IMG/VR virus record: IMGVR_UViG_2915331061_000005
DNA from: a virus
Taxonomy: Duplodnaviria > Heunggongvirae > Uroviricota > Caudoviricetes
Direction: 5' to 3' (one strand)
Length of the DNA stretch: 64,000 nt
In this document: in pieces, positions 1 to 58,247 of the stretch
Numbering within the stretch: position 1 is the stretch's first letter
Layout: each line of letters starts with the position of its first letter
Program-made: the position numbers and the translations under genes
The notes under the pieces: model-generated
Told to the model about the DNA's origin: nothing
Databases searched by the model: none
The model's input: the letters and a program-made list of their open reading frames with translations, nothing else

Positions 1-114
1 GATAGCCGTCCATGCAGTAAAAGGCACTCCCCGTGCCGACAAAAATTCTGCCGCCGTTGTTGATTACCTCACAATGACCGCAGTTCTTGATCTGGGCAGC
101 CAGTGCAGAAAGTT

Positions 115-300
115 TCATCTTTTCACCACCTCCACGTCAGGATCACCGTCTTCGATGAACTCAGGATAGGCACTCTTTGCGCGTTTCCTCGCTTCGCGGA
201 CTGCCGCATTCGCATTTTTTGCTTCCAGCTTATACGGCAGATACATATTTTCTTTCGTATAGCTGTCAATGCCAAACAACATGATGCTGAACTTCGCCAT
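115..300 (-). CDS. Small conserved hypothetical protein (MAKFSIMLFGIDSYTK...), paralog at 53163..53369
   Basis: Internal ATG of ORF 115..411 preceded by GAAGGGAG RBS. The 61-aa product is ~60 % identical to the copy in module B. Confidence 0.5.
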   Translation of the reverse strand: MAKFSIMLFGIDSYTKENMYLPYKLEAKNANAAVREARKRAKSAYPEFIEDGDPDVEVVKR

Positions 301-380
301 CGTCTGCTCCCTTCTGTTTATTTTTCTTTCGGTGGGCATTTCCGGGCTTGAACCGGGTGGGGCCTGTCCCATGCTCATAT

Positions 381-410
381 AAAAAGAAGCCGCCGCGCCG
401 GGCGGCTCCA
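381..410 (-). terminator. Intrinsic terminator hairpin (GGAGCCGCCCGGCGCGGCGGCTTC then U-tract) upstream of the small gene
   Basis: GC-rich inverted repeat followed by TTTTTATAT on the minus strand. Conserved at 53431..53459. Confidence 0.4.
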
Positions 411-424
411 CGCTTTACCTATGC

Positions 425-652
425 TTATCTTCCCATGGGTTGATATCTATTTGCGCACTCCATATTCGTGCAAAATCGTTCTGTTCCAATGATTTTCAGC
501 GGTTTCCCGCAATACGGGCAAAACGTTGGCTTAGGTTGCGGTTGGCCTTCTCCCTCTAAACTCTGTTGCAACCGATAGAGTGCGCACATGAACGATCCCG
601 GCTGCACATACAGTACACATCGTTCCCTTGCTCTGCAAATATCGCAATTCAT
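425..652 (-). CDS. Zinc-ribbon protein (two CxxC pairs)
   Basis: 75-aa ORF with CDIC...CPYCG...C..C motifs. Confidence 0.45.
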   Translation of the reverse strand: MNCDICRARERCVLYVQPGSFMCALYRLQQSLEGEGQPQPKPTFCPYCGKPLKIIGTERFCTNMECANRYQPMGR

Positions 653-656
653 TTTT

Positions 657-839
657 TTACCTCATCAAATACAGCCAGCAGAATTTCACCAGCCCCGCCG
701 GGACAAGCACAGCCGCCACCAGCCAGAGAACAGCTGCCGCGATCACCAGCGCCGCGAAAATTCCGGTCGCTTCTATCTTTCCGATTTTTACTTTATGATC
801 CATGTTTTTAGCCATTTCCCCTATCTTTGAAGTCCACAA
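657..839 (-). CDS. Small membrane protein
   Basis: 60-aa ORF with one strongly hydrophobic helix (IFAALVIAAAVLWLVAAVLV). Confidence 0.35.
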   Translation of the reverse strand: MWTSKIGEMAKNMDHKVKIGKIEATGIFAALVIAAAVLWLVAAVLVPAGLVKFCWLYLMR

Positions 840-1065
840 ATCGATCTTCTTCGTCTATCATGAACTCGTCAGCGTTCCACACTTCTTTGCAATCCAGACA
901 GTATGCTGTCTGACATTCCATCGGACCCGATGTGCTTCTTGTTCTTTTCTTTAGGAGTTTTCCACGCTTTCCAAGTAACTGGTCATAAGAAAACATCCAG
1001 TGATCCGACACTATAATCTGCCCACCGCAAACCGGGCAGGCTTTGCATTCAGTTCCCTCTCTCAT
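808..1065 (-). CDS. Zinc-ribbon/zinc-finger protein
   Basis: CKACPVCG ... CLDCKEVW cysteine pairs. Confidence 0.45.
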   Translation of the reverse strand: MREGTECKACPVCGGQIIVSDHWMFSYDQLLGKRGKLLKKRTRSTSGPMECQTAYCLDCKEVWNADEFMIDEEDRFVDFKDRGNG

Positions 1066-1066
1066 T

Positions 1067-1606
1067 TTATTTTCCCTTTATGATCCAGACCCGGTGTTCG
1101 CCGTATCCTTCCCAGTTCAGTGCATCCTCATGGCTGCCAGAAACAGCCACGTCCAGCTTATTGCCTTGAATGGCTGCACCGCGATCCTGCACAACGCGCA
1201 CGCCAATGTTTTCTATGTACAGAACGGTTCCAAACGGCAGGCTTTCATCTGCTGCAACAGTCAGCCCCGCCGTCACCGGTGCGCCGCTGGCGGTGATTCC
1301 GTGTCCTTCTCCGCAAATGTGCGGGTATTCTTCTGTGCAGTACGCCGTACACAGAAATTCCCCGGCATATTCCTTTGTCAGTCCATCTGGCAGGGCATTT
1401 TCATTGGCGGCAGTCTGTAACTGGTCGATAACTTCTTCATCCTGAATTGCTCTGTCCTGCCAGTTTGCCAGACGGGCGGAATAGATAATACGCTGCCCTT
1501 CCAGATCATCAATGCGTCTCTGCATCACCGCAACTTTTGTGGCATTGACAATTTCCGCCGCAAAGAACAGTACCAGAATCGCCTTTGTTTTCGCTGTCAT
1601 TTCCAA
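1067..1606 (-). CDS. 3D-domain (MltA/YuiC-like) cell-wall binding/lytic protein with N-terminal signal/TM
   Basis: TAYCTEEYPHICGEGHGITASG...VAADESLPFGTVLYIENIGVRVVQDRGAAIQGNKLDV matches the 3D (Asp-rich) domain. Paralog at 55645..56181. Confidence 0.65.
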   Translation of the reverse strand: MEMTAKTKAILVLFFAAEIVNATKVAVMQRRIDDLEGQRIIYSARLANWQDRAIQDEEVIDQLQTAANENALPDGLTKEYAGEFLCTAYCTEEYPHICGEGHGITASGAPVTAGLTVAADESLPFGTVLYIENIGVRVVQDRGAAIQGNKLDVAVSGSHEDALNWEGYGEHRVWIIKGK

Positions 1607-3117
1607 ACCTCCTTTTCGTCACCGCGATTGGAAACTCTTCTATTTCACTTGCCCAGCGTGCCGTGCCTTTCCCGTATGTAGTCTCCCACACTAGAGGAAA
1701 GCCACCAATTCCGTCAAACAAGCTACCCAGCGTTGCGCCCGCCGGAAGGTATTGCTTCATTTTCTGGGCGATCCAGAACCATTGCGGAAGCGCGATGCTG
1801 TTTCCCAGTGCCTTATAACGCGGGCTGTCTGCCGCCTTGTGCTTTTTCCCTTTGGTGTCCGTCCATTCTCCAATGTCCGTCCACCCGTCCGGGTATCCTT
1901 GCAGGCGCTCGCACTCTGTCGGGGTCAACCTGCGCACGATCCATTGTATCGTCTTTTCTATCACCGCTGCGTCGTGTCTTTCCGCGTACAATGTGCCCAT
2001 TTTTTCCACTTCGTATCCAATTCCGTTCGCCTTTGCTCCTGCTTTATAGGCAAAGCCAGCGCATAGCCGTTCGCGTCGATACTCCAAAGCTACCGCCTGT
2101 GGGTCGTGCATTGTGGTTAACGTGCCGGATGTTTCTTTGCTTGCGGAAACATTCGTTTGCCCATTCCCAACGCCATAGCTCGCCGTCAGGATAGCGGTAT
2201 AGTCCGTCACTCTGCTTTCGTGATCCCCGGTAATGGTCGGCACTGTCTTGCCATCACCGTTTCCCCGTGCATCAAAGACCTTATACGCTACTGCTGGACG
2301 GTCAACAGTGTTCAGCGTGTAGCTCTGGTTTTCCTTCACGCCGGAACCATTTGCGCCGGCCGTTTCAGAGCGATCAATAATGTTTCCTGCCAGGCAATAG
2401 ACCGGCTGAAAAAGGGTCTGATCCTGTAGCGTCGAAAGTGTTCCTGTTTTTTCGGTCTGCACCAGTGCACCTTTGCCGCCCCCGGCACAGCCTGACCGGA
2501 TTTTCAAGGTGTAGGCTTGCCCCCCCTGCTGGCCCACCATTCGATCATTTCCAGTAGGGCGGTTTCCAGCAGTTCTTGTAGCTTCTTGCCACGTCGGGAT
2601 GCTCTGGTCAGGATGCCCCGGCAAGCTTTCGCGCTCAAATAGTATTTCTCCGGCACGTCCACCTGCAAAATCCACGACAAGAGCGATACGTTTTCTTCTC
2701 TGGGGCACTCCCCAATATTGAGCGTCAAGCTGTCGCCAAGCCAGAGACCATCCATTTCCGGCGATTGCTCCGGCTTTGCTCCATCTGCCCCCCCCTCGGA
2801 GGTCTAGGAATTGAAGCGTCTGGTTCTTCCACGCGGGCAAGTTCTTCCAGCACGGCGCGGAAGTCTTCTCCGCCGTTTGAACTGAACGCTCCGGGAACAT
2901 TTTCCCAAATAACGACAACTGGATAACTTCCATGTGTCGCCCTCCTCATTTCTTTGATGATCCGAACTGCTTCCATGAACAATCCCGACCGTTCTCCCGC
3001 AAGTCCCGCCCGCCGCCCAGCAATGGAAAGGTCTTGGCATGGGCTGCCGAAGGTGATGCAATACACGGGTTCTATCTGGTCGCCATGTATCTTTGTGATA
3101 TCTCCAAGGTGGATCAC
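1509..3117 (-). CDS. DNA (cytosine-5)-methyltransferase, circularly permuted (motif order IV-VI-VIII-TRD-IX-X-I-II), split into two frames at a G8 tract (plus-strand C8 at 2768..2775)
   Basis: ORF 2725..3117 has GDI...FGSPCQDLSIAG (motifs III/IV) and ENVPG (VI). ORF 1509..2933 has YWGVPQRRKRIALV (VIII), RLTPTECERLQGYPDGWT (IX), ALGNSIALP (X), then LFDGIGGF (I) and ASEIEEFPIAV (II) near its C-terminus. The frames differ by one nucleotide at the homopolymer. Confidence 0.7.
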
Positions 3118-3431
3118 TTCTTGTCACCCCACCTTGCTTTATGGGGTAAGTCCTGGCACGGGCTGCTGCCGATCAAATAATCCGCCACAATTTCGCCATC
3201 TTCTGCCCACTTCATTCCCAGAAAATCCGCAACGCCGAAACTGCCGTCTTCGCAGCAATGCGTTTCTTGTACAAGCGGTTGGTTTTCAAGTTTCTTCAAC
3301 GGCCCAATTCCACTGGCGGTAAACGCCGCATTTGCCGTTGCGGTCCAGGCTGTCTCTTTATCACCAGTTCCGCCGTTGGTGAAGGTCTTCCCGCACAGCC
3401 TGCACCTGAACGTCATGTAGTACCCTTTCAT
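3114..3431 (-). CDS. Zinc-ribbon protein
   Basis: Internal start MKGYYMTFRCRLCGK...; CRLC and HCC motifs. ATGA overlap with the MTase start. Confidence 0.4.
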   Translation of the reverse strand: MKGYYMTFRCRLCGKTFTNGGTGDKETAWTATANAAFTASGIGPLKKLENQPLVQETHCCEDGSFGVADFLGMKWAEDGEIVADYLIGSSPCQDLPHKARWGDKK

Positions 3432-3461
3432 TGTTCTTCTCCCTTCTGCTTTTTGTTCTTG

Positions 3462-3538
3462 CACGGGTGGCCGGAATCGAACCGGCTTGCCTGCCGCTGG
3501 GGGATCAGGACGGCAGGCAACTTCCTTACTACACCCGC
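3462..3538 (-). ncRNA. tRNA-like structured element (7-bp acceptor-like stem, 9-bp hairpin with 14-nt loop, canonical T-arm GCCGG-TTCGATT-CCGGC); non-canonical, no D-arm
   Basis: Minus strand GCGGGTG...TGCCTGCCG-TCCTGATCCCCCAG-CGGCAGGCA-A-GCCGGTTCGATTCCGGC-CACCCGT-G. Conserved copy at 57773..57849. Confidence 0.35.
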
Positions 3539-3539
3539 A

Positions 3540-3577
3540 TATCAAAACCCACCGCGCAAGAGAGGTGGCGCGGTGGG
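3540..3577 (-). terminator. Intrinsic terminator (CCACCGCGC-loop-GCGCGGTGG then GTTTTGATAT) immediately 5' of the tRNA-like element
   Basis: Perfect 9-bp stem plus U-tract on the minus strand. Conserved, with a G-U pair, at 57856..57890. Confidence 0.4.
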
Positions 3578-3955
3578 GCGACCCGTTGCGGTCGGGTCTG
3601 CTGCCTTTTGCCTGGGCAATTGGGACAGGGCGTTTCTGCGCTCACGCTGCGACGTGCCGTTCAGCTTATGCCGGACTGCCATGCGGGCACGGTTTAGGAA
3701 ATACGGACAGGTCGGATTTTCACCGCCTTATACGGAAGGTTAGCGCTGCTTTTTCAGCATCCGTATTTCCCTGCCAGTTTTGGAAGATGAAACCTTGACC
3801 GGCTTCCATGGAATATGCGAGCAAAGCGGCGCAGGCGGGGTTCGACCCCGCTCCCAGCGTGCTGCGGGCACACCCTGCGCCATATAAAAGCCGCCCGGCC
3901 TTCACACATGACAACTGCTGCTTATCTGCTGAAAACTCTGGCCGGGCGGCTACAT

Positions 3956-4402
3956 TCAGTTTGTTTTGTGGTGCGTCACACTGTATTCTTCGCATTCCTT
4001 GTTGTACCCGTCGCAGGGCGCGCACCGCTGCGACGTGATACGGAACGTGTGTTGGCACTGTTCGCCCTTCTTCGGGGCTGGATGGGTCTTTGTGGACCTC
4101 GCAAGATTTTTCATTTCTTTTGCTTTATATAAATAAGTAGCAGTGCCCAGCGGCACCGTGTTCAGATGGAGCTTTGGTTGAACCCTGCGTGTCCGGTAAC
4201 GGCGCTTGTTGTGAATGGCCCATCCGGGCGTTTCCGGCGGCAAAAGCGTGTATGTCAAATCGTCCAGACCTTCACAGAAGCGTTTGACGCTCTCTGTGAT
4301 TTTCTCAAACGAGTCTATAATTATCTGGCGCATTTTCATCAAATCGCCCACCGGATCTTCGGACCATTCCCGCGTGCCGTGCTCAGGATCGGTTACTATC
4401 AT
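3956..4402 (-). CDS. Hypothetical protein; C-terminal 52 aa is a conserved Cys-rich module (EQCQHTF..RCAPC.GY..C) that occurs as a separate small gene at 58248..58421
   Basis: ORF 3956..4429. Its C-terminal segment aligns with the module-B small protein. Confidence 0.4.
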   Translation of the reverse strand: MIVTDPEHGTREWSEDPVGDLMKMRQIIIDSFEKITESVKRFCEGLDDLTYTLLPPETPGWAIHNKRRYRTRRVQPKLHLNTVPLGTATYLYKAKEMKNLARSTKTHPAPKKGEQCQHTFRITSQRCAPCDGYNKECEEYSVTHHKTN

Positions 4403-4547
4403 GCGCTTCCTTTTCCTTCCGCGCCGCAAACTGTGCAGCGCCCTCCGGGTATCTGGTGGGCTTCCCGGTCAGGTCTGCCGTTGCGGCAAACTCCCGCAGG
4501 ATATGCAGCAGAGGGACAGCAACAACGCCGGTTACTTTCACGCTCAT
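4383..4547 (-). CDS. Small conserved hypothetical (KPTRYPEGAAQF motif), paralog at 58995..59147
   Basis: Internal start MSVKVTG... of ORF 4383..4595. RPTRYPAGRAEF is conserved in copy B. Confidence 0.35.
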   Translation of the reverse strand: MSVKVTGVVAVPLLHILREFAATADLTGKPTRYPEGAAQFAARKEKEAHDSNRS

Positions 4548-4551
4548 AGGT

Positions 4552-5040
4552 TCAGCCCCCGTTCTTGTCTTTCCGTGCCTGCTTGTCCACCGCACTGATG
4601 ATGTGCTTTACCACTTCTTCCATGGGCATATCACCTGCCGGGACCTTGAACATCACGCCCTGCGCCTGACCCGGATTTTCCTTTGCCTGCTTCATTGCAT
4701 CTGCAATAATTTTCTCCATCATGCTGTCCACGTCGCCGGGCTGGCTTGCGGAAGGATCATTCCGCTTTTCTGCCGTGGCGGCAGTGGCAACAGGTTCAGC
4801 GGCAGGTGCGTTGCCATACTCGCGCTTCCATATGGATTCAAACCGTTCGGCGATGATTGCTTTCGCTATGGTCATGACGGCTTCTGCCTTCTTGCGGTTG
4901 CCGTTGCTGGCATCTGCAACGGTGTGTGCAACTGCTATTGCCGCCATAAAAACTTGATCCGTACTGTCTCCCATTGTTTCCACGCTGAGCGAAGTTTCGC
5001 TCTTCATCTTCACGACCAGTTCTGCAATGTTCTTGCCCAT
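4552..5040 (-). CDS. Hypothetical protein
   Basis: 162-aa ORF, acidic, no recognisable motif. Confidence 0.45.
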   Translation of the reverse strand: MGKNIAELVVKMKSETSLSVETMGDSTDQVFMAAIAVAHTVADASNGNRKKAEAVMTIAKAIIAERFESIWKREYGNAPAAEPVATAATAEKRNDPSASQPGDVDSMMEKIIADAMKQAKENPGQAQGVMFKVPAGDMPMEEVVKHIISAVDKQARKDKNGG

Positions 5041-5054
5041 AACACGACTTCCTT

Positions 5055-5357
5055 TCAGGACGGCGCATTTCCGCCCACGTCACTAGTACCAGTGGCTTCA
5101 TACGAATATTCTTTCAGCTCAATGTCCTGTACGCTGTCTTCATCCAACCACTTATTGATGATGTTAAACAGGTATTGCTTGCGCATCTGAATAATGTTCT
5201 TGTTGGTGGTGCCCAGAGAAAACATCTTGATAGCAACGCTCGCTACAAGCCGGGTCAGTTCATCTCCCTGCCCGTTCATTTCCACATAGACACTTTTCTT
5301 CTCTGGCGCATCATGGCCCGTGAAAAACGCCAGAATATGCGTTTTGCTCTTATCCAT
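5055..5357 (-). CDS. Hypothetical protein (AF.HG...NGQGD family, homolog of 59526..59875)
   Basis: Start MDKSKTHILAFFTGHD with AAGGGAGACG RBS. Shares the pattern ILAFFTGHD...NGQGDEL with B copy YAFIHGE...GNGLDLL. Confidence 0.45.
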   Translation of the reverse strand: MDKSKTHILAFFTGHDAPEKKSVYVEMNGQGDELTRLVASVAIKMFSLGTTNKNIIQMRKQYLFNIINKWLDEDSVQDIELKEYSYEATGTSDVGGNAPS

Positions 5358-5370
5358 GTAGTCGTCTCCC

Positions 5371-5796
5371 TTACGAAGGCAGGCCGTCGTCTGCATCCTG
5401 CGGTCTGCTGCCGGTGCCCGCCCGGTCGTCCACAGCAGCGCCAGAGCAGGTAGCACAGTCACCGAAGCACCCGGTGTTCGTGTTCTCTTTCAGCTTTGCC
5501 ATCGCTTGCGCAATAGCGGTTGCCTTTTCGCCGTGCCACTGGACGCTATGGTCTTTGCCATATTCGATCTCGCTGTTGCGGGCGTTCCATGCATCATCCA
5601 GCATACCGTCCAGCTGGTTCTTCATGTCATCCAGCATCTTAATCGCCCGTTCCTTTTCCGGGCTGGACTGCACGATTACGTCAGCCAGCGCCATAGCCGC
5701 GATCTGTGCGATATCTCCCGCGTGGCCGTCAACCTGAATTTCGACATCATCGCCATCCAGAGCGACAGCCAAATAGGCATCCCATCTTTTCTCCAT
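5371..5796 (-). CDS. Hypothetical protein
   Basis: 141-aa ORF with RBS AAAGGACAAAAG. Confidence 0.45.
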   Translation of the reverse strand: MEKRWDAYLAVALDGDDVEIQVDGHAGDIAQIAAMALADVIVQSSPEKERAIKMLDDMKNQLDGMLDDAWNARNSEIEYGKDHSVQWHGEKATAIAQAMAKLKENTNTGCFGDCATCSGAAVDDRAGTGSRPQDADDGLPS

Positions 5797-5830
5797 CTTT
5801 TGTCCTTTCTATTGGTGTGAATCTTCGGTC

Positions 5831-5894
5831 TGGTGGAGCATCCCGGAATCGAACCGGTTCCGGGGCTACACCCCCGGACGCGCCTGCATACTCC
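5831..5894 (-). ncRNA. Minimal tRNA-like element ending in CTCCACCA (acceptor GGAGTAT/ATGCTCC, 7-bp hairpin, T-arm ACCGG-TTCGATT-CCGGG, discriminator A, CCA)
   Basis: Minus strand GGAGTATGCAGGCGCG-TCCGGGG-GTGTAG-CCCCGGA-ACCGGTTCGATTCCGGG-ATGCTCC-A-CCA. Only 64 nt, with no D-arm and no canonical anticodon loop. Confidence 0.35.
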
Positions 5895-5895
5895 A

Positions 5896-5927
5896 TAAAA
5901 CGGGCGGCTTGACAGGCTGCCGCCCAC
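5896..5927 (-). terminator. Intrinsic terminator (GGGCGGC-loop-GCCGCCC then GTTTTAT) immediately 5' of the tRNA-like element
   Basis: 7-bp GC stem plus U-tract. Same terminator-then-tRNA-like architecture as 3462..3577. Confidence 0.4.
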
Positions 5928-6066
5928 CCATGCGGGCCGCCCTATGTATTCTTTCAGTCCTCAGTAGGTAGGACCCCCGACTGTCGGAATGGCCGGGGCA
6001 GCCGTCTGCGTCCCCACGTTTCCGGCTGCATGGTGGGCGTGATTCGGTGCGCCCAGACCTTTGCGG

Positions 6067-6312
6067 CTAATCTCGTGGGTCTCTGCCGCCGATCAGCACG
6101 CCGCCCAGCAGTAGGATCAGCCACACCAACGCCACCACGCCCATGCCAAACTCCGTTATTACTTTGACCCAGTACAGCAGCGCTGTCAGGATGACGGCCA
6201 GAACCAGCGTTCCCGCCAGAACGGCCACCAGAATAATCAGGTTCATTTCGCTTTTCGCCCTTTCTTCTGCTTGTGCTGCCGCGTCTGCCGGGACTTCCGG
6301 CGGTCTTTGCAC
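6067..6312 (-). CDS. Small membrane protein (two TM helices)
   Basis: LIILVAVLAGTLVLAVILTALLYW...VVALVWLILLLGGVLIGG. Confidence 0.45.
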   Translation of the reverse strand: MQRPPEVPADAAAQAEERAKSEMNLIILVAVLAGTLVLAVILTALLYWVKVITEFGMGVVALVWLILLLGGVLIGGRDPRD

Positions 6313-6363
6313 GGGCGGCAGTACAGCGTGGTCAGCGTGTCGAACCGGCGGTACGCCCCGCCG

Positions 6364-6711
6364 TCATGCCTTTTCTTGCTGTTGTTCATGTTCCTTCCGC
6401 TTCCTGTTCCTCTCGATCAGATTATCCAGCTCTTCCCAGGCCTTCTGCTCTTTCAGCAGTTCGTCTAAGCGCCAGTACCCGTATGACTTGCCCGCTGCGT
6501 CCGCCTTGCGCACATCGGCGGTCAGCGGATCAGCGGGCGGGTTCTTATACTTCTTGCGTACCCGTTCCGCAAATCGTTCTGCGCAAACGGGGCACCGCCG
6601 GGCGGTGACATTATTTGAAAGGATCACCGCCCCGCAGTCAACGCAGGTCTTGATTATCACCGGTCCATTCCCCCTTGTGGTTCTGGATGTAGCGCCGGAT
6701 ATCCTCCGCAA
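6364..6711 (-). CDS. Zinc-ribbon protein; conserved C-terminal DVRKADAAGKSYGYWRLDE motif (paralog 60039..60224)
   Basis: CVDCG...CPVC. The C-terminal region aligns with the B-copy protein. Confidence 0.45.
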   Translation of the reverse strand: MRRISGATSRTTRGNGPVIIKTCVDCGAVILSNNVTARRCPVCAERFAERVRKKYKNPPADPLTADVRKADAAGKSYGYWRLDELLKEQKAWEELDNLIERNRKRKEHEQQQEKA

Positions 6712-6798
6712 ACTTTTTGCGCTTCCTGCGCTCTATCACTTCAAAGATGGTGTACATCGCCGCACACACCACGACGACCGCCACCGCCGCCGCGCCCA

Positions 6799-7044
6799 TC
6801 ATCTGGCACGCTCCCGCTTCAGCTGCTTTTCCAGCTCTAAGCGTTCGCACTCCCAGCGATACCGCCGGACACGCTCTTCCAGCAGGTTCACCTTCTGTTC
6901 CAGCTTCGTGGTGTAGCTGATGCTGCACCAGCCCCATGTCAGCAGGGCAGCAATGGTGACGATCAGTGCAAACCACGCCACCGGCTCCCGTGCGGCTGCC
7001 TGGGCGGCATCCACGCCGTAGAACCACATAATAAAGTTCCTCAT
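6799..7044 (-). CDS. Membrane plus coiled-coil small protein
   Basis: N-terminal TM helix, C-terminal LEERVRRYRWECERLELEKQLKRERAR. RBS AAGGAGAG. Confidence 0.45.
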   Translation of the reverse strand: MRNFIMWFYGVDAAQAAAREPVAWFALIVTIAALLTWGWCSISYTTKLEQKVNLLEERVRRYRWECERLELEKQLKRERAR

Positions 7045-7200
7045 GCCTGTTCGCTCTCCTTCTTGTCTTCCGGTGCCTGTGCACCAGCCTTTGCCAGCTT
7101 CATGCCCTGAACCACGCCTGCGATATAGGTCGCTGCTTCCGGGTTCTCTGCCAGCAGTTCGGCCATTTCCTTGCTCTGGCTCTTGTCTTTCTCGCTCATG
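7041..7200 (-). CDS. Unlisted small ORF (MSEKDKSQSKEMAELLAENPEAATYIAGVVQGMKLAKAGAQAPEDKKESEQA), stop overlapping the next start (ATGA)
   Basis: RBS AAAGGAGCG eight nt upstream. Translationally coupled to 6799..7044. Confidence 0.3.
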
Positions 7201-7238
7201 CTCTCACGCTCCTTTGTTGTCTGCTCCTTCCCGTCGTG

Positions 7239-7490
7239 CTATAATATGGTGCCATTGGTGATAAGCAGCGCCGCCGGGAAGTCCGGGTCGTAGTTGAACT
7301 CGATCCGGGCTTTTGCTTTGTGGTCAATAAATCTCACGACTGCCCCGATTTCTCCCAACTTCTGAAACGCTTCTTCCTTGCGCCACACGCCGATTCCTAT
7401 GCCGTTGCAATGAATCTCTTCCGGCTTGTAGCCGTAGTGTTTCAGCACTTCGTCCACGTCGAGTTCATCAAATGCTTTTTTGTGGATCAC
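7239..7490 (-). CDS. Conserved hypothetical (DEVLKHYGYKPEE...KAKARIEFNYDPDFPAALLIT); paralogs at 60523..60810 and 61062..61372
   Basis: >70 % identity to the C-terminal half of the B-copy proteins. GTG start after GGGGGTGAAG. Confidence 0.5.
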   Translation of the reverse strand: MIHKKAFDELDVDEVLKHYGYKPEEIHCNGIGIGVWRKEEAFQKLGEIGAVVRFIDHKAKARIEFNYDPDFPAALLITNGTIL

Positions 7491-7574
7491 ACTTCTTCAC
7501 CCCCTTTTCTGTTGCTCTCGTGTTGCCCATCTCCTCCCGCCGTGGTACAATAGCCACAGAAAGGAGGTGTAAAA

Positions 7575-7943
7575 ATGAGCCTGTCGTTAACTAAAAAGGC
7601 TATCCTTGCCGGATACGCTCATTCCATTTCTCTTAAGGGATTTGAAACAAATCGCCTGTTTCTCGTCACCGCCGCTGGCATCATCAGCGGTATTCCTGTG
7701 TTTGATGAAAAAACAGACAATTTGAATGTTACCGTTGCACAGACGCTCAACTCTGCGGCTCTTGAAGCTGTTTCTAAGGCTGATAGCCCCGATGAAGAGC
7801 GTTCCGCTGGAAGCGGCGAGTTCATTCTGTTAAGGGATGCTCGGTTTGAAGCCACAACTCCCGTTGTGAACTTCCCCATTCTGACCGTGTTCTACGATCA
7901 GATCATTGCCGTGAGCCTTGGTACTGACCCCACCAATCGTTAA
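7575..7943 (+). CDS. Hypothetical protein
   Basis: Strong RBS AAAGGAGG 8 nt upstream, preceded by -10-like TACAAT. Confidence 0.45.
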   Translation: MSLSLTKKAILAGYAHSISLKGFETNRLFLVTAAGIISGIPVFDEKTDNLNVTVAQTLNSAALEAVSKADSPDEERSAGSGEFILLRDARFEATTPVVNFPILTVFYDQIIAVSLGTDPTNR

Positions 7944-8033
7944 GCTCTCGACCTTTTGCCGTCCTTGTACCGCTAATACAAGGGCGGCAATTTCTTTTGC
8001 GCTGCCAGTGATTACAATTTTCATCTCCTTCAC
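7830..8033 (-). CDS. Small hypothetical protein
   Basis: 67-aa ORF. Shares a duplicated 30-nt leader with 7239..7490. Overlaps the 3' end of 7575..7943. Confidence 0.3.
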   Translation of the reverse strand: MKEMKIVITGSAKEIAALVLAVQGRQKVESLTIGGVSTKAHGNDLIVEHGQNGEVHNGSCGFKPSIP

Positions 8034-8082
8034 CCCCCTTCTGTTGCTCTCGTGTTCGCTAAGTTAACTTTACGAGTTCATT

Positions 8083-8099
8083 ATAGTTTATCAAACTAT
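8083..8099. promoter_or_regulatory. Candidate operator: 7-bp inverted repeat ATAGTTT-ATC-AAACTAT upstream of the repressor promoter
   Basis: Perfect palindrome ~30 bp upstream of the -35 box. Confidence 0.35.
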
Positions 8100-8129
8100 C
8101 ATTGTCAACCCCTTTTTCTTCTTTTTTCG

Positions 8130-8158
8130 TTGACTTAATTAACGCGCCGTGCTATTAT
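8130..8158 (+). promoter_or_regulatory. Sigma-70-type promoter (TTGACT, 17 nt, TATTAT) for the XRE repressor gene
   Basis: Near-consensus boxes with 17-nt spacer, ~27 nt before ATG 8185 and RBS AAGGAGGTG. Confidence 0.55.
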
Positions 8159-8184
8159 TATAGTAAAGGAGGTGAAACAAAGGT

Positions 8185-8667
8185 ATGAAAGATAGAATCC
8201 GGGAGGTTCGAGAGCATTTTGGACTTAGTATGGAGAAGTTTGGTTCCCGCATTGGCATAGGCAAAGCGTCCATTAGTCTTTTGGAAAGCGGTAAGAACAA
8301 TCCATCCGTTCAGACCATTACTCTTATCTGCCGGGAGTTCGGTGTAAACGAACAGTGGCTCCGCACTGGTGAGGGCGAAATGCTTGAGCAGACCCGGGCA
8401 AGCGTGCTGGACAGGCTGTCCACGGAATACGATCTGAGCAGGGAGCAGCGTTCCGTAATTGAAGCGTTCCTTGATCTGGACCCGCAGGAACGGGACGTGA
8501 TTCTGAAGTATGTGCATAACGTTTTTGACCGTTCCGCAGAATCCGCAGCCCAGAGCATAGCAATACCCGATAAGGAAGCCCGGCGCATTGCCGAGAGCGA
8601 CGAGTTCAAAGCCCTTCGGGAAAAGAACGAGCCGCCGGAGAGCGAATCGTGTACTACCGCCGGTTAG
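8185..8667 (+). CDS. XRE-family HTH transcriptional repressor (CI-like)
   Basis: N-terminal HTH_XRE motif (LSMEKFGSRIGIGKASISLLESGKNNPSVQTITLICREFGVNEQWL). Sits next to the integrase at the prophage edge. Confidence 0.8.
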   Translation: MKDRIREVREHFGLSMEKFGSRIGIGKASISLLESGKNNPSVQTITLICREFGVNEQWLRTGEGEMLEQTRASVLDRLSTEYDLSREQRSVIEAFLDLDPQERDVILKYVHNVFDRSAESAAQSIAIPDKEARRIAESDEFKALREKNEPPESESCTTAG

Positions 8668-8723
8668 TTCTTCAACGTGCCGCTTCTGAGTGGCTGAAGA
8701 ATCACCAGTAAATCCGCGCAAAA

Positions 8724-8762
8724 AGAAAAAGCCCACCGGGGGACAGGCCCGGTAGGCTTTTT
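8724..8762. terminator. Bidirectional intrinsic terminator (A-tract, 13-bp stem, T-tract)
   Basis: AAAAAGCCCACCGGGggacagGCCCGGTAGGCTTTTT. Confidence 0.45.
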
Positions 8763-8797
8763 CGTGTATGCAAATTATTTTATGGAGGTATTATCTT

Positions 8798-9265
8798 ATG
8801 AGAAAAATTTCTGTCTTTGCTGTTTCCTGTGCCGCCGTTCTCCTTCTTTCCGCTTGTGGCAGTTCTTCCAGTTCCGTGCCTGCATCTAGCGGCGCTTCGT
8901 CTGCTGTGTCCAGTTCTTCGGAACCGGTTTCTTCCGTTTCCGTTTCATCTTCTGCATCGGTCGATGATGCGTTTTCCGATTTTGAAGCCGCGCTTTCCGA
9001 GAACGGTATTGCTTATACGGAAAAGGTTCGTATGGCTGCTGAACTTATCGGCGGCGTAGACGGTTACAAATACAAAACACCCGATTATAACATTGAGGTG
9101 TATACTTTCGATCCTTCGTCCGACGCTTATCTGACTACCGAAAAGGACGGCACCGTTATCATGGAAGGCTTTGGCTCATTCCCTGCTTATGCTCACAACG
9201 GCATGGTTCTTGTGCAGACCGACAATCTTCCCCAGGAAGTGATTGACCTGTTTGATGCCATGTAA
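8798..9265 (+). CDS. Lipoprotein (signal peptide with lipobox LLSAC, Ser-rich linker)
   Basis: MRKISVFAVSCAAVLLLSACGSSSSS... RBS GGAGG. Confidence 0.6.
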   Translation: MRKISVFAVSCAAVLLLSACGSSSSSVPASSGASSAVSSSSEPVSSVSVSSSASVDDAFSDFEAALSENGIAYTEKVRMAAELIGGVDGYKYKTPDYNIEVYTFDPSSDAYLTTEKDGTVIMEGFGSFPAYAHNGMVLVQTDNLPQEVIDLFDAM

Positions 9266-9301
9266 AGCTCCACATTGTCTTTCTGCAAAGGTGGTGTCCC
9301 T

Positions 9302-10912
9302 ATGAAGAAACAACCAACCGGCGGCAAGCGTCTTGTTGCCTACTACCGCTACAGCGGCGGCAGTCATCAAACGGAGCAGTCCATTGAGGGGCAGCGCCGG
9401 GACTGCGAAACTTACGCCCGTATCCATGGCATGGTCATCCTGCATGAATACATTGACCGGCATATCTCCGGCAAGACGGACGACCGCCCGGAGTTTCAGC
9501 AGATGATCGCCGATGCTGGGAAAGGGATGTTCGACTATGTGATTTGCTGGAAAACAGACCGCATTGCCCGCTCCCGGTATGACAGCATCGTCTATAAAAA
9601 GAAGCTCCGTGACAACGGCGTGGAGCTACTCTATGCCGCAGAAGCCAACGTTGAAGGCTCCGGCGGTATCATCGTGGAGGGCTTGATGGAAGCCCTTGCC
9701 GAATACTACTCTGCCGAACTGGCCGAGAAGGTGCGGCGCGGTATGCGGGAAAGTGCCTTGAAGGGCAAGGCTATCGGCAGTTCCCGTCCCCTTGGTCTTA
9801 CCGTGGACAAGGATAAGAAGTATATCATCGACCCCGCCGGGGCTGCCGCCGTGCGGTATATCTTTGAGCAGTACGCCGCCGGGGCTGCGTCCTCTGCTAT
9901 CGTTGCACACCTGAATGAACAGGGCTTGTGCACCAGCCGGGGCAACCCGTTCAATAAGTCCAGCGTGGTGCGTATCATCCAAAACGAGGTGTATCGGGGC
10001 GTGTATGTCAGCCCCAAGTTTGACGTGCGCATTGAGGGCGCAGTACCGGCCATTATTGACGACGATCTATGGGAGAGGGCGCAGAAGATGTTTATTCGTA
10101 ACCGTCAGAGCCGTTCCCCGCGCAATGACCGCGCGGACTACATCCTGTCCGGCAAGCTGTTTTGTGGCGAGTGCGGCACTGCCATGAAGGGCGTGTCCGG
10201 CCACAGCAGCAACGGCGAGGTGTACTTCTACTACAGCTGTCCGTGCAAGGACTGCCACCGCCGGAACATCCCGAAGGACGAGCTGGAAGGTCTGGTAATC
10301 CGCACCGTCTGTAACGACGTGTTGCAGCCGGACGTGATGGATCGCATTGCAGACAGTGTGATCGAAGCCCAGACCGCCGAACTGAACCAGCCAAACCCGG
10401 AGAAGGAAGCATTGCAGCACGAGCTTGCCGACGTGCAGCGCAAGGCAAAGAATCTGCTGTCTGCATTGGAGAACGGCACCGCCGGGGCTATGCTGACCAA
10501 CCGCCTTGCCGAACTGGAACAGCAGGCCAACACGCTGTCCTATCAGCTGTCGTCGCTGGAATCTGAGCCGAAGTTCCCGGTCTTCTCCAAGGAAGAAGTT
10601 CTGTACCTGCTGGAACAGTTCCTCATTGCCCCCAGCGAGAAAACCAAGGCATACCGCCGCCGCCTAATCGACACCTTTGTCAGCAAGATCGAGGTGAGCA
10701 ACACGGAACTGACCATCTATTTCAACATTGCCGAGGAAGATTGTGGAAAAATGAAAAAAGCTCCCCAGTCGAACCAGCCCGAAGGCTGTTCGACTGAGAA
10801 GCAAATGGTCCACCTTGCACATCAACAAGCGAACTATTCCCTTTATGCGGCTTCCGGCTACTTTTCACTGGTTGAACACCAATTTTCGGCCCGTTTGTGG
10901 CGCACCGCATAA
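9302..10912 (+). CDS. Large serine recombinase (phage integrase)
   Basis: Resolvase catalytic domain (VAYYRYSGG...EGQRRDC), recombinase domain, zinc ribbon (CGECG...CPCKDC) and C-terminal coiled coil. ~65 % identical to 62456..64000. Confidence 0.85.
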   Translation: MKKQPTGGKRLVAYYRYSGGSHQTEQSIEGQRRDCETYARIHGMVILHEYIDRHISGKTDDRPEFQQMIADAGKGMFDYVICWKTDRIARSRYDSIVYKKKLRDNGVELLYAAEANVEGSGGIIVEGLMEALAEYYSAELAEKVRRGMRESALKGKAIGSSRPLGLTVDKDKKYIIDPAGAAAVRYIFEQYAAGAASSAIVAHLNEQGLCTSRGNPFNKSSVVRIIQNEVYRGVYVSPKFDVRIEGAVPAIIDDDLWERAQKMFIRNRQSRSPRNDRADYILSGKLFCGECGTAMKGVSGHSSNGEVYFYYSCPCKDCHRRNIPKDELEGLVIRTVCNDVLQPDVMDRIADSVIEAQTAELNQPNPEKEALQHELADVQRKAKNLLSALENGTAGAMLTNRLAELEQQANTLSYQLSSLESEPKFPVFSKEEVLYLLEQFLIAPSEKTKAYRRRLIDTFVSKIEVSNTELTIYFNIAEEDCGKMKKAPQSNQPEGCSTEKQMVHLAHQQANYSLYAASGYFSLVEHQFSARLWRTA

Positions 10913-41161: not shown

Positions 41162-41321
41162 CAGCTCGCAAGATGGGATTTGAACAGCTCATCTTGCAAT
41201 GATTTTACCAGTTTTCGCCGGTAAAGTCAAGCGGACACTTTGCAAGGGCTGCACCGCTCAACAAAGCAACCCATGCCCACCACCCCGCCGGGGTGATTCA
41301 AAAGAAAAGAGGTTTTGAAGT

Positions 41322-41711: not shown

Positions 41712-41824
41712 CCCCCGGATACCTTGACGGGCCGCACCACGAAAAGCGACCCGATCCCACGCCCCGACAATAGCCGGGGAAAAGCACGAAAAGCCACACC
41801 ACGAAACGAAAAGGAGAAACAACC

Positions 41825-42400: not shown

Positions 42401-42504
42401 TCCCCGCCGGATACCTTGACGGGCCGCACCGAAAAGCGACCCGATCCCATCCACCCGGCCCCGCCGGGAAGAACCACAACAAAAATTGAAAGGAAGTATT
42501 TACC

Positions 42505-43446: not shown

Positions 43447-43566
43447 CACGAAACGGAGACCCCAGCAGGGCCGCACCGCTCAAAGCGGCCCCGCCCCACT
43501 TCCCACCGGCACCCCGCCGGGGGATCGTCACGAAACACGAAAAACGAAAACAGGAGGCTTGAATTT

Positions 43567-44052: not shown

Positions 44053-44144
44053 TCCGCGCCGGATACCTTGACGGGCCGCACCGTAAAGCGACCCGATCCC
44101 AGCCGAAAGGCACAACACGAAACGCGAAAAGGAGCAAACGAATT

Positions 44145-45065: not shown

Positions 45066-45171
45066 TAAAAGCGGACACCCCAGCAGGGCCGCACCGATTC
45101 AAAGCGGCCCCGCCCCATCTTCCCGGCATAAATGTCGGGAACATCACGAAAACGAAAAGGAGCTATGAACC

Positions 45172-55644: not shown

Positions 55645-56181
55645 TTATTCCTCCTTCAAAACCCATACTCTATGATTTCCACAGCCGTTCCACTTCTCGG
55701 CATTCTCGTGAGTGTCCACAGCTACATCAAGGTGTTTTCCCTGAATGGCGGCTCCTTTGTCCTGCACAATGCGGATTCCTACGCCCTCAATGTACAGAAC
55801 CGTTCCATACGGAAAGATGGACGTGTCCGCTGCCACAGTGACGCCTGCCTGTATAGGCTGGCCGCTGGCCGTAATTCCGTGTCCTTCTCCGCAGATATGT
55901 TCGTACTGTTCTGTGCAATATGCCGTGCAGAAAAATGTACCTGCCTCTGTCAGCTCGATTTTCCTGTCCGCTGTTTCATCAAGGCGAATTTGCAGAGAAT
56001 CAATAACTTCTTCGTCCTCTACAGCCCGGTCAAGCCAGTTCTGGGCACGGCTTGCGTAAATATCCCGCTGGGTCTCAAGGTCTGCAATACGGCCTTTCAG
56101 TACGCCGACCTTTGCGCTGTTGACGATCTCAGCCGCGAAGAACAGCACCAGAATTGCTTTCATTTTCCGTGTCATTTCCAA
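55645..56181 (-). CDS. 3D-domain (MltA/YuiC-like) protein, paralog of 1067..1606
   Basis: TAYCTEQYEHICGEGHGITASG...VAADTSIFPYGTVLYIEGVGIRIVQDKGAAIQGKHLDV. Confidence 0.65.
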   Translation of the reverse strand: MEMTRKMKAILVLFFAAEIVNSAKVGVLKGRIADLETQRDIYASRAQNWLDRAVEDEEVIDSLQIRLDETADRKIELTEAGTFFCTAYCTEQYEHICGEGHGITASGQPIQAGVTVAADTSIFPYGTVLYIEGVGIRIVQDKGAAIQGKHLDVAVDTHENAEKWNGCGNHRVWVLKEE

Positions 56182-57539
56182 ACCACCTTTTTGTTACTGC
56201 AATTGGAAATTCTTCAATTTCAGACGCCCACACTGCTGTACCTGCTCCATATGCCGTCTCCCACACAAGCGGGAAACCGCCAATTCCATCAAACAGGCTT
56301 CCCAGTGTTGGCTTATCTTTCAGGTATGGCCGCATCTTCTGGGCAATCCAGAACCACTGCGGAAGGGCAATGCTGTTTCCCAGTGCCTTATAGCGCGGCG
56401 TATCTGCCGGTTTATGCTTTTTCCCTTTGGTGTCCGTCCATTCCCCGATGTCTGTCCATCCGTCCGGGTATCCCTGCAGGCGCTCACATTCCGTCGGGGT
56501 CAATCTTCGGACGATCCAGCGCACGACACGTTCCGCCACAAGGCATTCCCCACCGTTTCCGATATTTCCCGTTTTCGCTTTCAGTGTTGCACTGCTGTCG
56601 CTTTCCTTGTATGTAGAGAAAGTCTGCTCGCTATAGGTTTTTCTTTCAGCAACCTGCGGCCCCGCTGTCGTCCCGGTATTCTTGCAACTCAAGGCTGCCG
56701 CCTTGCTTCCGGTAACAGCTCCGTTGTACAGATCGACCGCAATAGCCGTATAGTCTGTGACGCGGCTCTCATGATCCCCGGTAATGGTCGGAACTGTCTT
56801 ACCGTTGCCATTTCCACGAGCGTCAAAGACGATTGGCTGGAAAAGGGTCTGGTCTTGAAGCGTCGAGAGCGTTCCCGTCTTTTCTGTCTGCACCAGTGCG
56901 CCTTTCCCGCCTCCTGCACATCCCGAACGGATTTTCAAGGTGTAGGCTGCCTCCCCTGCCACCACTCGATCATGTCCAGCAGGGCAGTTTTGAGTAAATC
57001 CGGTAACGCTTTGCCACGTCGGGATGCTCTTGTCAGGATTCCCTGACAGGCCCGTGCGCTCAAAAAGTATCTCTGCGGCACATTGACCTCTAAAATCTGC
57101 GACAACTGCGATACGCTTTCTACGCTGGGGCACTCCCCAACGTTCAGCGTTGAGCAACCGCCATGCCAGAGACCAGCCGTTTCCGATGATTGCTCCGGCC
57201 TTGCACCATCGCCCCCCCCGCAGGTCGAGGAATTGAAACGTCTGGTTGTGCCGCGTGGGCAAGTTTTTCCAGCACGGTTCTGAAATCTTCTCCGCCGTTT
57301 GAGCTGAAAGCTCCGGGAACATTTTCCCAGATAGCGAAAGCTGGATACATTCCATTTGTGGCAACCCTCATTTCTACAATAACTCTTATGGCTTCTGTGA
57401 ACAGACCGGAATTTTTCCCCTCAAGGCCAGCTCTCAAGCCTGCCATGGACAAATCCTGACAAGGCGAACCAAACGTGATGCAGTCCACGGGTTCAATCTG
57501 GTCTCCATGGATTTTAGTAATGTCGCCCAAATGAATCAT
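56129..57539 (-). CDS. Circularly permuted DNA (cytosine-5)-methyltransferase, second copy, split at a G8 tract (plus-strand C8 at 57212..57219)
   Basis: Same motif order and same frame offset as 1509..3117. ORFs 57144..57539 and 56129..57364. Confidence 0.7.
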
Positions 57540-57772: not shown

Positions 57773-57849
57773 CACGGGTGGCCGGAATCGAACCGGCTTG
57801 CCTGCCGATGGGGGATCAGAACGGCGGACAACTTCCTTGCTACACCCGC
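57773..57849 (-). ncRNA. tRNA-like structured element, second copy
   Basis: ~90 % identical to 3462..3538. Differences in the long hairpin partly preserve pairing. Upstream terminator at 57856..57890. Confidence 0.35.
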
Positions 57850-58247
57850 ATATCAGAACCCACCGCGCAAGAGAGCAGCGCGGCGGGCCGGTCTTGGTCA
57901 AGCAGACCTTCCACCTTTGGCTTGGGTGGATCGGACAAGGCATTTCTTCGCTCATGCGGCGTGCACGCCCAAATCGGTTTCCGCACCGTCATGCGGGCGT
58001 AGCTTGGCAGAAAGGCAGCGTGGTCTTGCACCAGCTTACACGGGAGAAACGCCGCCATACGGCACCCTCTGCCCCTGTCGGTGCGTCAAATTATGGACAA
58101 ACGCACCGGCTTCCATGAATACCTGCTGCAAAGCGGCGCGGACGGGGTGTGGCCCCGCTGGCGGTTTCCCCCTGCGTCGTTTCAAGGTTCAGCCCCGCGC
58201 CATATAAAAGCCGCCGCGCTGACGCGGTGCGTGGCGGCTCATTCATA

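Follow-up and report, generated by a model that had tools for sequence, protein, structure and literature searches.

A length-variable G run within overlapping methylase and X reading frames as a probable phase-variation-type switch in Toutatis-like Faecalibacterium prophages

The window analysed here, a stretch of 64,000 nucleotides (nt) from the IMG/VR virus record IMGVR_UViG_2915331061_000005 (Caudoviricetes), carries on its minus strand two copies of a gene for a C5-methyltransferase (cytosine methylase). In both copies a run of eight G residues (G8) between motifs VI and VIII offsets the reading frame by a single base, a break already described in an earlier note on this DNA and seen again here with the same offset (+1) in each copy. 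The run, termed tract 1, lies inside a segment that the methylase shares with a second open reading frame (ORF), named X. Comparison of related sequences has shown tract 1 to be a genuinely length-unstable homopolymer, and the slippery G run is considered, with a probability of about 0.7, to act as a phase-variation-type frame switch of a phage methylase that overlaps X. The parts involved are given below, where roman numerals denote methylase motifs, A stands for the part carrying III to VI, B for the part from VIII to II, and X_N and X_C for the parts of X on either side of the tract; the motif of the same name is always written motif X.

Copy 2, 57212..57219, minus strand (C8 on the plus strand): tract 1, G8, inside the methylase/X overlap.
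Copy 2, 57144..57539, minus strand: ORF A, 131 residues, with motifs III (HLGDI), IV (GSPCQDLS) and VI (WENVPG) and a stop 22 codons past the tract.
Copy 2, 56129..57364, minus strand: downstream frame, from motif VIII onward, in the next frame.
Copy 2, 56129..57355, minus strand: long ORF from the X ATG (57353..57355) in the G8 state, with 48 X codons followed by VIII, the variable region, IX, motif X, I and II.
Copy 2, 56935..57211, minus strand: X_C, the C-terminal two thirds of X (…LNVGECP…LSQILEVNVPQRYFLSARACQGILTRASRRGKALPDLL…EWWQGRQPTP, then stop), in the third frame in the G8 state and without a start codon.
Copy 1, 2788..2795, minus strand: tract 1, G8 on the coding strand.
Copy 1, 2725..3117, minus strand: ORF A, 130 residues, GTG start, with motifs III, IV and VI.
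Copy 1, 1509..2933, minus strand: long ORF of 474 residues in the G8 state, with the X ATG at 2931..2933, 48 X codons, VIII, a variable region that is longer and holds additional modules, IX, motif X, I and II.
Copy 1, 2504..2787, minus strand: X_C (…LNIGECP…VPEKYYLSAKACRGILTRASRRGKKLQELL…EWWASRGGKPTP, then stop).
Copy 1, 2520..2526, minus strand (C7 on the plus strand): tract 2, found in the copy-1 type only, G7 at the X stop and in the methylase linker.

The two sides of the break belong to one enzyme. Residues 3-95 of ORF A in copy 2 match Pfam PF00145, and the downstream frame continues with motifs VIII (PQRRKRI), IX (RRLTPTECERLQGYP), X (ALGNSIALP), I (LFDGIGGFP) and II (WASEIEEFP); the C5-methyltransferase motifs I, IV (PCQ), VI (ENV), VIII (QxRxR), IX and X are all present. 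Deletion of a single G fuses the frames, and the resulting products match PF00145 (E values of 8e-35 and 3e-33), with the fused methylase reaching 114.5 bits against TIGR00675 (cut-off 100.65). Natural G7 alleles are likewise in frame, which bears out the earlier proposal that a change from G8 to G7 restores the methylase frame. The conceptual fused protein of copy 2 is 100% identical to the product of the Faecalibacterium phages FP_Toutatis and Lelie, while chimeric ORFs identical to the unfused long ORF of copy 2 have been called in metagenomes (P0282, P0287). The X_C part of copy 1 is 99% like P0071, a 142-residue protein called in 15 contigs. The position previously given for the copy-2 run was exact and that for copy 1 (2768..2775) lay 20 nt away from the run. 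The two G8 runs are the only homopolymers of at least 8 nt in the window, where the only other G/C run of at least 7 nt is the C7 of tract 2. Runs of G8/C8 are not above chance in the window (2 found vs 2.3 expected from shuffles), and the significance of the tracts therefore rests on their homologous position, the frame break and their natural length polymorphism.

This polymorphism is considerable. Tract 1 reads G8 in the window, and at the same site Toutatis has G9 and Lelie G14, the last of these being an inducible prophage assembled from Illumina reads with SPAdes (PMC11792537). In a 7.4-kb alignment of the three, 205 columns contain mismatches and only two indel blocks occur, one of them being the tract; a length that varies among near-identical phages, with a single other indel over this distance, agrees with the earlier view that the frame break is no artefact. 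In IMG/VR a degenerate flank pattern matched at least 120 stretches, and public metagenomes gave 27 more with exact Toutatis-type flanks. Together, 147 viral or metagenome contigs (120 from IMG/VR and 27 from metagenomes) form the listed sample to which the counts on tract 1 refer. The metagenome contigs comprise G7 (two), G8 (six), G9 (five), G10 (four to five), G11 (three to six), G12 (one to two) and one 15-mer, and lengths from G7 to G15 occur across the 33 listed contigs with Toutatis-type flanks. Relatives with the copy-1 type of flanks (CCGA…CA) range from G6 to G10 and are mostly G7 and in frame. Even where 660-nt flanks agree at 98.5% identity or more, members of one cluster still differ in tract length (G7/G8; G8/G9/G10/G14; G7/G8/G9; G6/G8/G10). 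Counting the tract across related genomes, as had been suggested, has thus found it variable from G7 to G15.

Frame breaks are confined to uninterrupted runs and become more frequent in lineages with longer runs. None of the 29 contigs with interrupted or short runs is out of frame, compared with 8 of 47 (17%) of the TCGGGTA-Gn type, 17 of 38 (45%) of the CCGA-Gn type (the copy-1 type) and 25 of 33 (76%) of the Toutatis type, in which the runs are longest. This gradient, taken with the near-identical phages that differ in length, carries the signature of slipped-strand instability and supports the kind of repeat that the earlier note had envisaged. About two thirds of the contigs (97 of 147) are in frame, and the G8 type is the commonest out-of-frame class (37 of 50). 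Alleles of G7 and G10 give a single ORF of 469-470 residues (L004, P0269, P0274), which G8 and G9 break; in-frame G7 alleles are found in L004-L008 and in a Faecalibacterium tardum isolate, and the in-frame G10 allele P0269 (470 residues) belongs to a 90% cluster of 3282 sequences. The L003 lineage (PPKGKW) has no run and one continuous ORF. Conservation of the tract and of its offset across the copies, put forward in the earlier note, therefore holds for the offset within the window, which is the same in both, and fails beyond it, where most relatives are in frame and one lineage lacks the tract. Distant, non-permuted relatives also carry G runs, with G9 at the tract-1 position in L166 and G8 at the tract-2 position in L165. 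G8 itself is seen repeatedly, in a series of isolate phages sequenced with Illumina and in dozens of independent contigs that come from different samples, and the remaining parts of both reading frames are intact and conserved in the out-of-frame alleles. Further switches between the methylase, X and third frames have been observed off the G run, within about 100 nt of it, in Toutatis-type metagenome sequences (P0005, P0006, P0282, P0284); judging from the sequences, these could be either additional real indels or assembly errors around a long G run.

As the tract lies inside the methylase/X overlap, its length class decides how A, B, X_N and X_C are joined, giving three predicted product sets.

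3n+1 (G7, G10, G13): A-B, the full methylase (III-IV-VI-VIII-target recognition domain (TRD)-IX-X-I-II, where X is the motif), together with X_N-X_C, the intact X.
3n+2 (G8, G11, G14; both window copies): A alone (a 130-residue III-VI stub) together with X_N-B from the X ATG; X_C is without a start.
3n (G9, G12): A-X_C, 201 residues (Toutatis gp14; P0083, P0091); B is without a start.

Read in this manner, the switch is a three-way one that touches two products, and not a simple ON/OFF device. The sequences show both window prophages in the +1 state, without an intact single-chain enzyme, and it is a live possibility that the G8 state yields two separate polypeptides, the second of them initiated at the X start codon.

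X is an ORF of about 140 codons in the +1 frame of the methylase, extending from just before motif VI to about 50 codons past motif VIII. When the tract is in frame, its upstream part (MECIQLSLSGKMFPE…FQFLDLRGG) is continuous with the downstream part (…LNVGECP…LSQILEVNVPQRYFLSARACQGILTRASRRGKALPDLL…), and the downstream X frame is open in both copies and in diverged relatives. In a set of 75 diverse viral loci, all 75 keep the X frame open between motif VI and the RGK motif and none keeps the third frame open (mean of 5.1 stops); the third frame is also open in none of the 106 members of a Toutatis-like set. In that set the X ATG is kept in 106 of 106, with GAGG 10 nt upstream, and in diverse loci the first X ATG lies 29 nt before the ENV codons in 63 of 71, with a Shine-Dalgarno-like site upstream of it in 67 of 71. 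Motifs VI and VIII are found in the -1 frame of X at 75 of 76 diverse loci, which indicates that the nesting belongs to the whole family. Gene calls in hundreds of contigs include X as a protein (731 matches to a single sequence), and its profile matches 3923 clusters at 50% identity, 1709 of them below 1e-10.

Conservation in its own frame is unevenly distributed along X. A core of 30 codons has an amino acid identity of 0.75 in the X frame vs 0.50 in the methylase frame, at a nucleotide identity of 0.72, and over motifs VI and VIII the methylase frame reaches 0.78 vs 0.43-0.50 for the X frame. For the methylase frame, the entropy at third positions in the Toutatis-like alignment is 0.8-1.2 before the overlap and 0.26-0.69 inside it, and past motif VIII the most variable position is the wobble position of X. 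Own-frame conservation is strong in the C-terminal core and absent in the N-terminal two thirds, which are open and no better conserved than the DNA (0.43-0.50); counts of synonymous and nonsynonymous changes among distinct variants are weakly informative for this N-terminal part. At the level of sequence, these features speak for X being a true gene and not a by-product, with own-frame selection holding for the C-terminal core only. The X_C part might conceivably be no more than the ancestral segment that follows motif VIII in canonical C5 methylases ('L.DILE..V..KYYLS'), read in another frame.

Little can be gathered about X from existing resources. No match was obtained in Pfam or NCBIfam, and the only PHROGs match is phrog_16143 ('DNA methyltransferase', E 1e-6), which is probably X itself, named by association. 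Searches of PDB sequences returned only chance matches to designed repeat proteins and no solved relative, and the AlphaFold model has a predicted local distance difference test (pLDDT) score of 44 (23-sequence alignment), which makes it unusable. No paper describing X was found in the literature searched, which is not proof of absence, and a search of IMG/VR for loci related to the distant relative P0190 found nothing. Some relatives have X joined in frame to TRD-IX-X (P0166, P0123, L014, L132, L165). In others (L012, L020, L021; P0013, P0040) X is extended by 70-90 coiled-coil-like residues, and the methylase frame across this insertion reads as a low-complexity linker rich in Gly, Arg, Asp and Glu (L012, L020). 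For L005-L010, gene callers give X and a 5'-truncated methylase even though the full-length G7 ORF is intact. The RefSeq record of Toutatis lists gp14 (201 residues, the A-X_C chimera) and gp15 (the remainder), mirroring its G9. Database annotations for the X/methylase family are systematically misleading.

A second variable run is found at the other end of the overlap. In the listed relatives of the copy-1 type, tract 2 is G7 in 38, G8 in five, G6 in three and G9 in one, and a shift at this position fuses X to the variable region and motifs IX, X, I and II, while the other frame ends after VIII (L014, P0123). Tract 2 would thereby toggle the gene between two arrangements, a single-chain methylase accompanied by free X and a split form whose distal half is joined to X. 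Among the Toutatis-like loci listed, about 77 are single-chain, 28 are in the +1 state, 15 are split and six are in the -1 state. In the non-permuted L132 and L165, an alpha ORF (motifs I-VIII) overlaps a beta ORF (X-TRD-IX-X, ending in the motif) by about 140 codons. Of 76 loci from the wider family, 61 have motif IX in the methylase frame, which indicates that the single-chain form dominates, and six have it in the X frame.

The order of motifs in the enzyme is itself unusual. Both copies, like about 100 relatives, have III-IV-VI-VIII-TRD-IX-X-I-II and not the canonical order from I to X. The N-terminus of the methylase lies just before motif III and its C-terminus after II, with I-II directly following motif X. 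Read from this order, the window enzyme is a natural circular permutant opened between motifs II and III (II|III). A 2018 survey counted 27 natural permuted C5 methylases in REBASE, the II|III topology not being among them, and engineered permutants opened between II and III (cp62M.MpeI and cp58M.SssI) were the most active, near wild type (PMC5944983). By analogy with the latter, it is plausible that the permuted window enzyme is active. The AlphaFold model of the full-length in-frame methylase P0269 (30 sequences) is unusable, with a pLDDT of 33.5.

The presence of two copies is explained by the composition of the window. From about 9.8 to 64 kb it has about 98% identity to phage FP_Toutatis, with about 53-64 kb aligning to Toutatis 1-10846 at 97.9% identity and 10.8-12 kb aligning to the Toutatis lysis end, and the right-hand prophage has its serine-recombinase end near 64000. 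Positions 1-9.8 kb form an arm of a second, related Toutatis-like phage in which the early-gene order is repeated at 73-90% identity, and together these features indicate two tandem related prophages. The two methylase copies, described in the earlier note as paralogs, are on this sequence evidence not paralogs of a single genome unit but equivalent (orthologous) genes of two tandem Toutatis-like Faecalibacterium prophages. Their DNA identity is a little lower than the 80% or so first estimated, at 73% overall and 77% over the first 700 nt, and the flanks of the two tracts differ, so that no copy-paste between copies has taken place. The variable region of copy 1 (1950..2420, minus strand) contains extra modules (e.g. 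YCLAGNIIDRSETAGANGSGVKENQSYTLNTVDRPAVAY) not present in copy 2 and found in other relatives. These modules resemble those of multispecific phage C5 methylases, and the two prophages would therefore probably methylate different sets of sites.

Taken as a whole, these data favour the reading of tract 1 as a phase-variation-type frame switch. Slipped-strand mispairing during replication would change the tract length, and switching would be frequent and reversible within lineages. Only the 3n+1 alleles would give an active enzyme, because G8 parts motifs IV and VI from VIII in the catalytic domain and removes the X core. The outcome would be a heritable, reversible loss and regain of phage cytosine methylation and of X in prophage sub-lineages, and the biological role may be phase-variation-type bet-hedging of phage-encoded cytosine methylation. 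Several points weigh against this reading. High-frequency reversible switching is inferred solely from polymorphism between samples, and both the translation of X and the activity of the permuted enzyme are predictions from sequence, with AlphaFold scores as low as those given above (44 and 33.5). Some metagenome contigs have a coverage of 1-4x, and given this and the contigs of unrecorded platform, some odd tract lengths could be errors. The G run may also be kept as a side effect of dual coding, and not by selection for mutability, as no base of the run can be exchanged without altering an amino acid in one frame or the other. Moreover, the Toutatis type is spread almost evenly over the three frame classes (8 in frame, 17 at +1 and 8 at -1), a distribution that is also expected from neutral drift of an unneeded prophage gene.

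These last points lead to an alternative in which the run is a mutational hot spot without an adaptive role, the methylase and X being dispensable in the prophage and the out-of-frame alleles representing drifting, recurrent loss of function. Besides the frame classes, it could account for the retention of the run, where any base change is non-synonymous in one frame and Gly-Gly is encoded in both, and for the other frame-breaking indels near the tract in the metagenome proteins P0005, P0006, P0282 and P0284. It is nonetheless considered unlikely. The run is not obligatory, being interrupted in 29 contigs and lost in L003, and has even so been retained in three different flank contexts and among distant relatives. 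Tracts have expanded far past any coding need (G10-G15), a second variable run stands at the other end of the dual-coding segment, and the rest of both frames is intact in out-of-frame alleles, unlike in decaying pseudogenes. A plain error of sequencing or assembly, with a true tract of G7 or G10 in both copies, is the least credible of the explanations. Homopolymers are a classic error site on several platforms, the platform used for the window is unrecorded, and copy-1-type relatives are mostly G7; against this stand the single other indel between the window, Toutatis and Lelie in 7.4 kb, the recurrence of G8 in the independent contigs and Illumina-derived phages described above, and the different flanks of the two copies, which exclude copy-paste.

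In two further alternatives the G8 state would still provide methylase activity. One is recoding, in which ribosomes shifting by +1 on GGG-G, or RNA polymerase slipping on the G run, would yield the full-length methylase from G8. A homopolymer permits perfect re-pairing after a slip of one base, the +1 offset is common to both copies, and tracts of G10-G14 fall in the length range where A/T runs are known to cause transcriptional slippage. However, true programmed frameshift genes keep their offset, whereas here 97 of the 147 contigs are in frame and run-free relatives exist, and the zero-frame codon after the run (GCG or GCA) is neither a stop nor an obvious rare codon. No stimulatory structure was noticed either, although no search aimed at one was made. 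Recoding is accordingly thought improbable, and programmed ribosomal frameshifting, which the earlier note had offered beside phase variation, is disfavoured by an offset that most relatives do not share. The other is a functional split enzyme, in which the III-VI stub and X_N-VIII…II assemble and nothing is switched off. In its favour, the second half has a conserved ATG and a Shine-Dalgarno-like site in the G8 state, the G8 type is the commonest out-of-frame class, and C5 methylases tolerate splitting, as seen in the natural two-chain M.AquI and M.EcoHK31I (PMC3404938, PMC2836561). Known natural and efficient artificial splits are nevertheless placed after VIII, and not between VI and VIII in the catalytic domain (PMC3404938, PMC5944983); in addition, the stub would carry 22 out-of-frame residues, its partner 48 foreign ones, and the conserved X core would be lost. 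A working split enzyme in the G8 state appears, for these reasons, to have a poor chance of being correct.

A more speculative proposal, tentative and rather doubtful at present, draws on analogy with two-chain methylases. Across a very large family of C5 methyltransferases from phages and mobile elements, X might be a trans-acting partner of the methylase, either a missing piece of the small domain, like the beta polypeptide of M.EcoHK31I, or a regulator, and the G runs at the two ends of the overlap might serve as a frame selector giving several heritable epigenetic states. The states would comprise the active single chain accompanied by X, an enzyme in split form, a DNA-binding chimera without catalytic activity, and the III-VI-X_C chimera.

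Some additional features have been observed around the methylase copies and elsewhere in the window. Upstream of each copy, on the minus strand at about 57775-57850 and about 3450-3530, lies a conserved tRNA-like 3' portion comprising a T-arm (GCCGGTTCGATTCCGGC) and an acceptor-like GCGGGTG…CACCCGT pairing. For this element ARAGORN reported no tRNA, and Rfam gave nothing at the gathering or E<=1 thresholds. An ORF at 3114..3545 (minus strand), just upstream of the copy-1 methylase and also present in L005-L008, ends in …IGSSPCQDLPHK, and this end constitutes a second motif-IV-like PCQD located 119 nt before the real motif IV. In sequence the second PCQD looks like a recombination scar at conserved motif-IV DNA. 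Six matches to RAGATH-5 (Rfam RF02685, 58-68 bits, gathering score 50) lie on the plus strand within 4 kb of the prophage, as follows.

41231-41286, plus strand: RAGATH-5 (Rfam).
41715-41766, plus strand: RAGATH-5 (Rfam).
42407-42456, plus strand: RAGATH-5 (Rfam).
43453-43505, plus strand: RAGATH-5 (Rfam).
44059-44108, plus strand: RAGATH-5 (Rfam).
45071-45124, plus strand: RAGATH-5 (Rfam).

The host genus gives these observations a wider relevance. Faecalibacterium is among the most abundant, health-associated bacteria of the human gut, and Toutatis-like prophages are common in it. If the frame switch operates as proposed, phage DNA modification would be heterogeneous within a population and host DNA modification would vary likewise in the prophage state. 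This would be relevant to how the phage escapes restriction, to the range of its hosts, to how sensitive it is to methyl-directed nucleases and perhaps to gene regulation in the host. An example from a Gram-positive gut bacterium would then join the very few recognised phage contingency loci. X, conserved across thousands of methylase clusters, offers a testable case of long same-strand overlap in DNA phages, and the II|III permutation would parallel, in nature, the engineered permutants of highest activity. Both should be useful for methylase engineering and for genome annotation, which now splits or mislabels these genes, as in gp14/gp15 of Toutatis.

Repeat-driven switching of methylases is best represented by the type III mod phasevarions of Haemophilus, Neisseria, Moraxella and Helicobacter, and poly-G tracts occur in restriction-modification genes of Campylobacter and Helicobacter. 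The present locus resembles phase-variable methyltransferases in having an intragenic repeat whose length shifts the methylase frame and whose alleles differ among close relatives (PMC6902483, PMC6321876). It differs from the type III mod genes in that it encodes an orphan C5 methylase in a temperate phage of a Gram-positive gut anaerobe, and is not chromosomal. Its repeat is situated in a dual-coding segment with three predicted product sets instead of an ON/OFF pair, and it is known here from sequence alone. In phage genes, poly-G tracts of 7-11 produce frameshift sub-populations. Hypermutable poly-G tracts are known in the receptor-binding genes of Campylobacter Fletchervirus, contingency loci are known in the T-even phages T2 and T4, and an unstudied poly-G tract is present in the methylase gene of Bordetella phage BPP-1 (bioRxiv 10.1101/2025.10.21.683753). 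The Fletchervirus and T-even loci are host-range or defence-escape genes of lytic phages, unlike the prophage methylase described here, in which two tracts flank an overlap and the evidence is metagenome-wide rather than experimental.

Comparable precedents exist for the nested gene, the split forms and the permutation. M.EcoHK31I also has a second polypeptide encoded in an alternative frame inside a C5-methylase gene, and its beta polypeptide carries motif IX and has been proven to be required (PMC2836561); X, in contrast, is without a recognised methylase motif in Pfam and NCBIfam and overlaps VI-VIII. As in M.AquI, a split after motif VIII is seen in L132, L165, L014, P0123 and P0166, with a beta part made up of the variable region, IX and motif X (PMC3404938). 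Here, however, the beta ORF begins as X, within alpha and about 140 codons further upstream, most relatives are single-chain (61 of 76), and it seems from the sequences that a change of one base at tract 2 leads to the split form. In the natural permuted C5 methylases (M.BssHII, M.Alw26I, M.Esp3I, M2.BsaI, Type H), motif X precedes I, as it does in the window enzyme (PMC5944983). By the type definitions of the same survey, the Type H topology (M.BssHII group) is not that of the window enzyme, whose break between II and III is that of cp62M.MpeI and cp58M.SssI (PMC5944983). Repeat-driven phase variation of methylases is already well established in several pathogens, and what sets this locus apart is the combination of a temperate phage whose host is a dominant gut Firmicute, a tract in a conserved dual-coding segment, where it would affect two proteins, a second tract at the opposite end of that segment and a natural permutation that had not been recorded.

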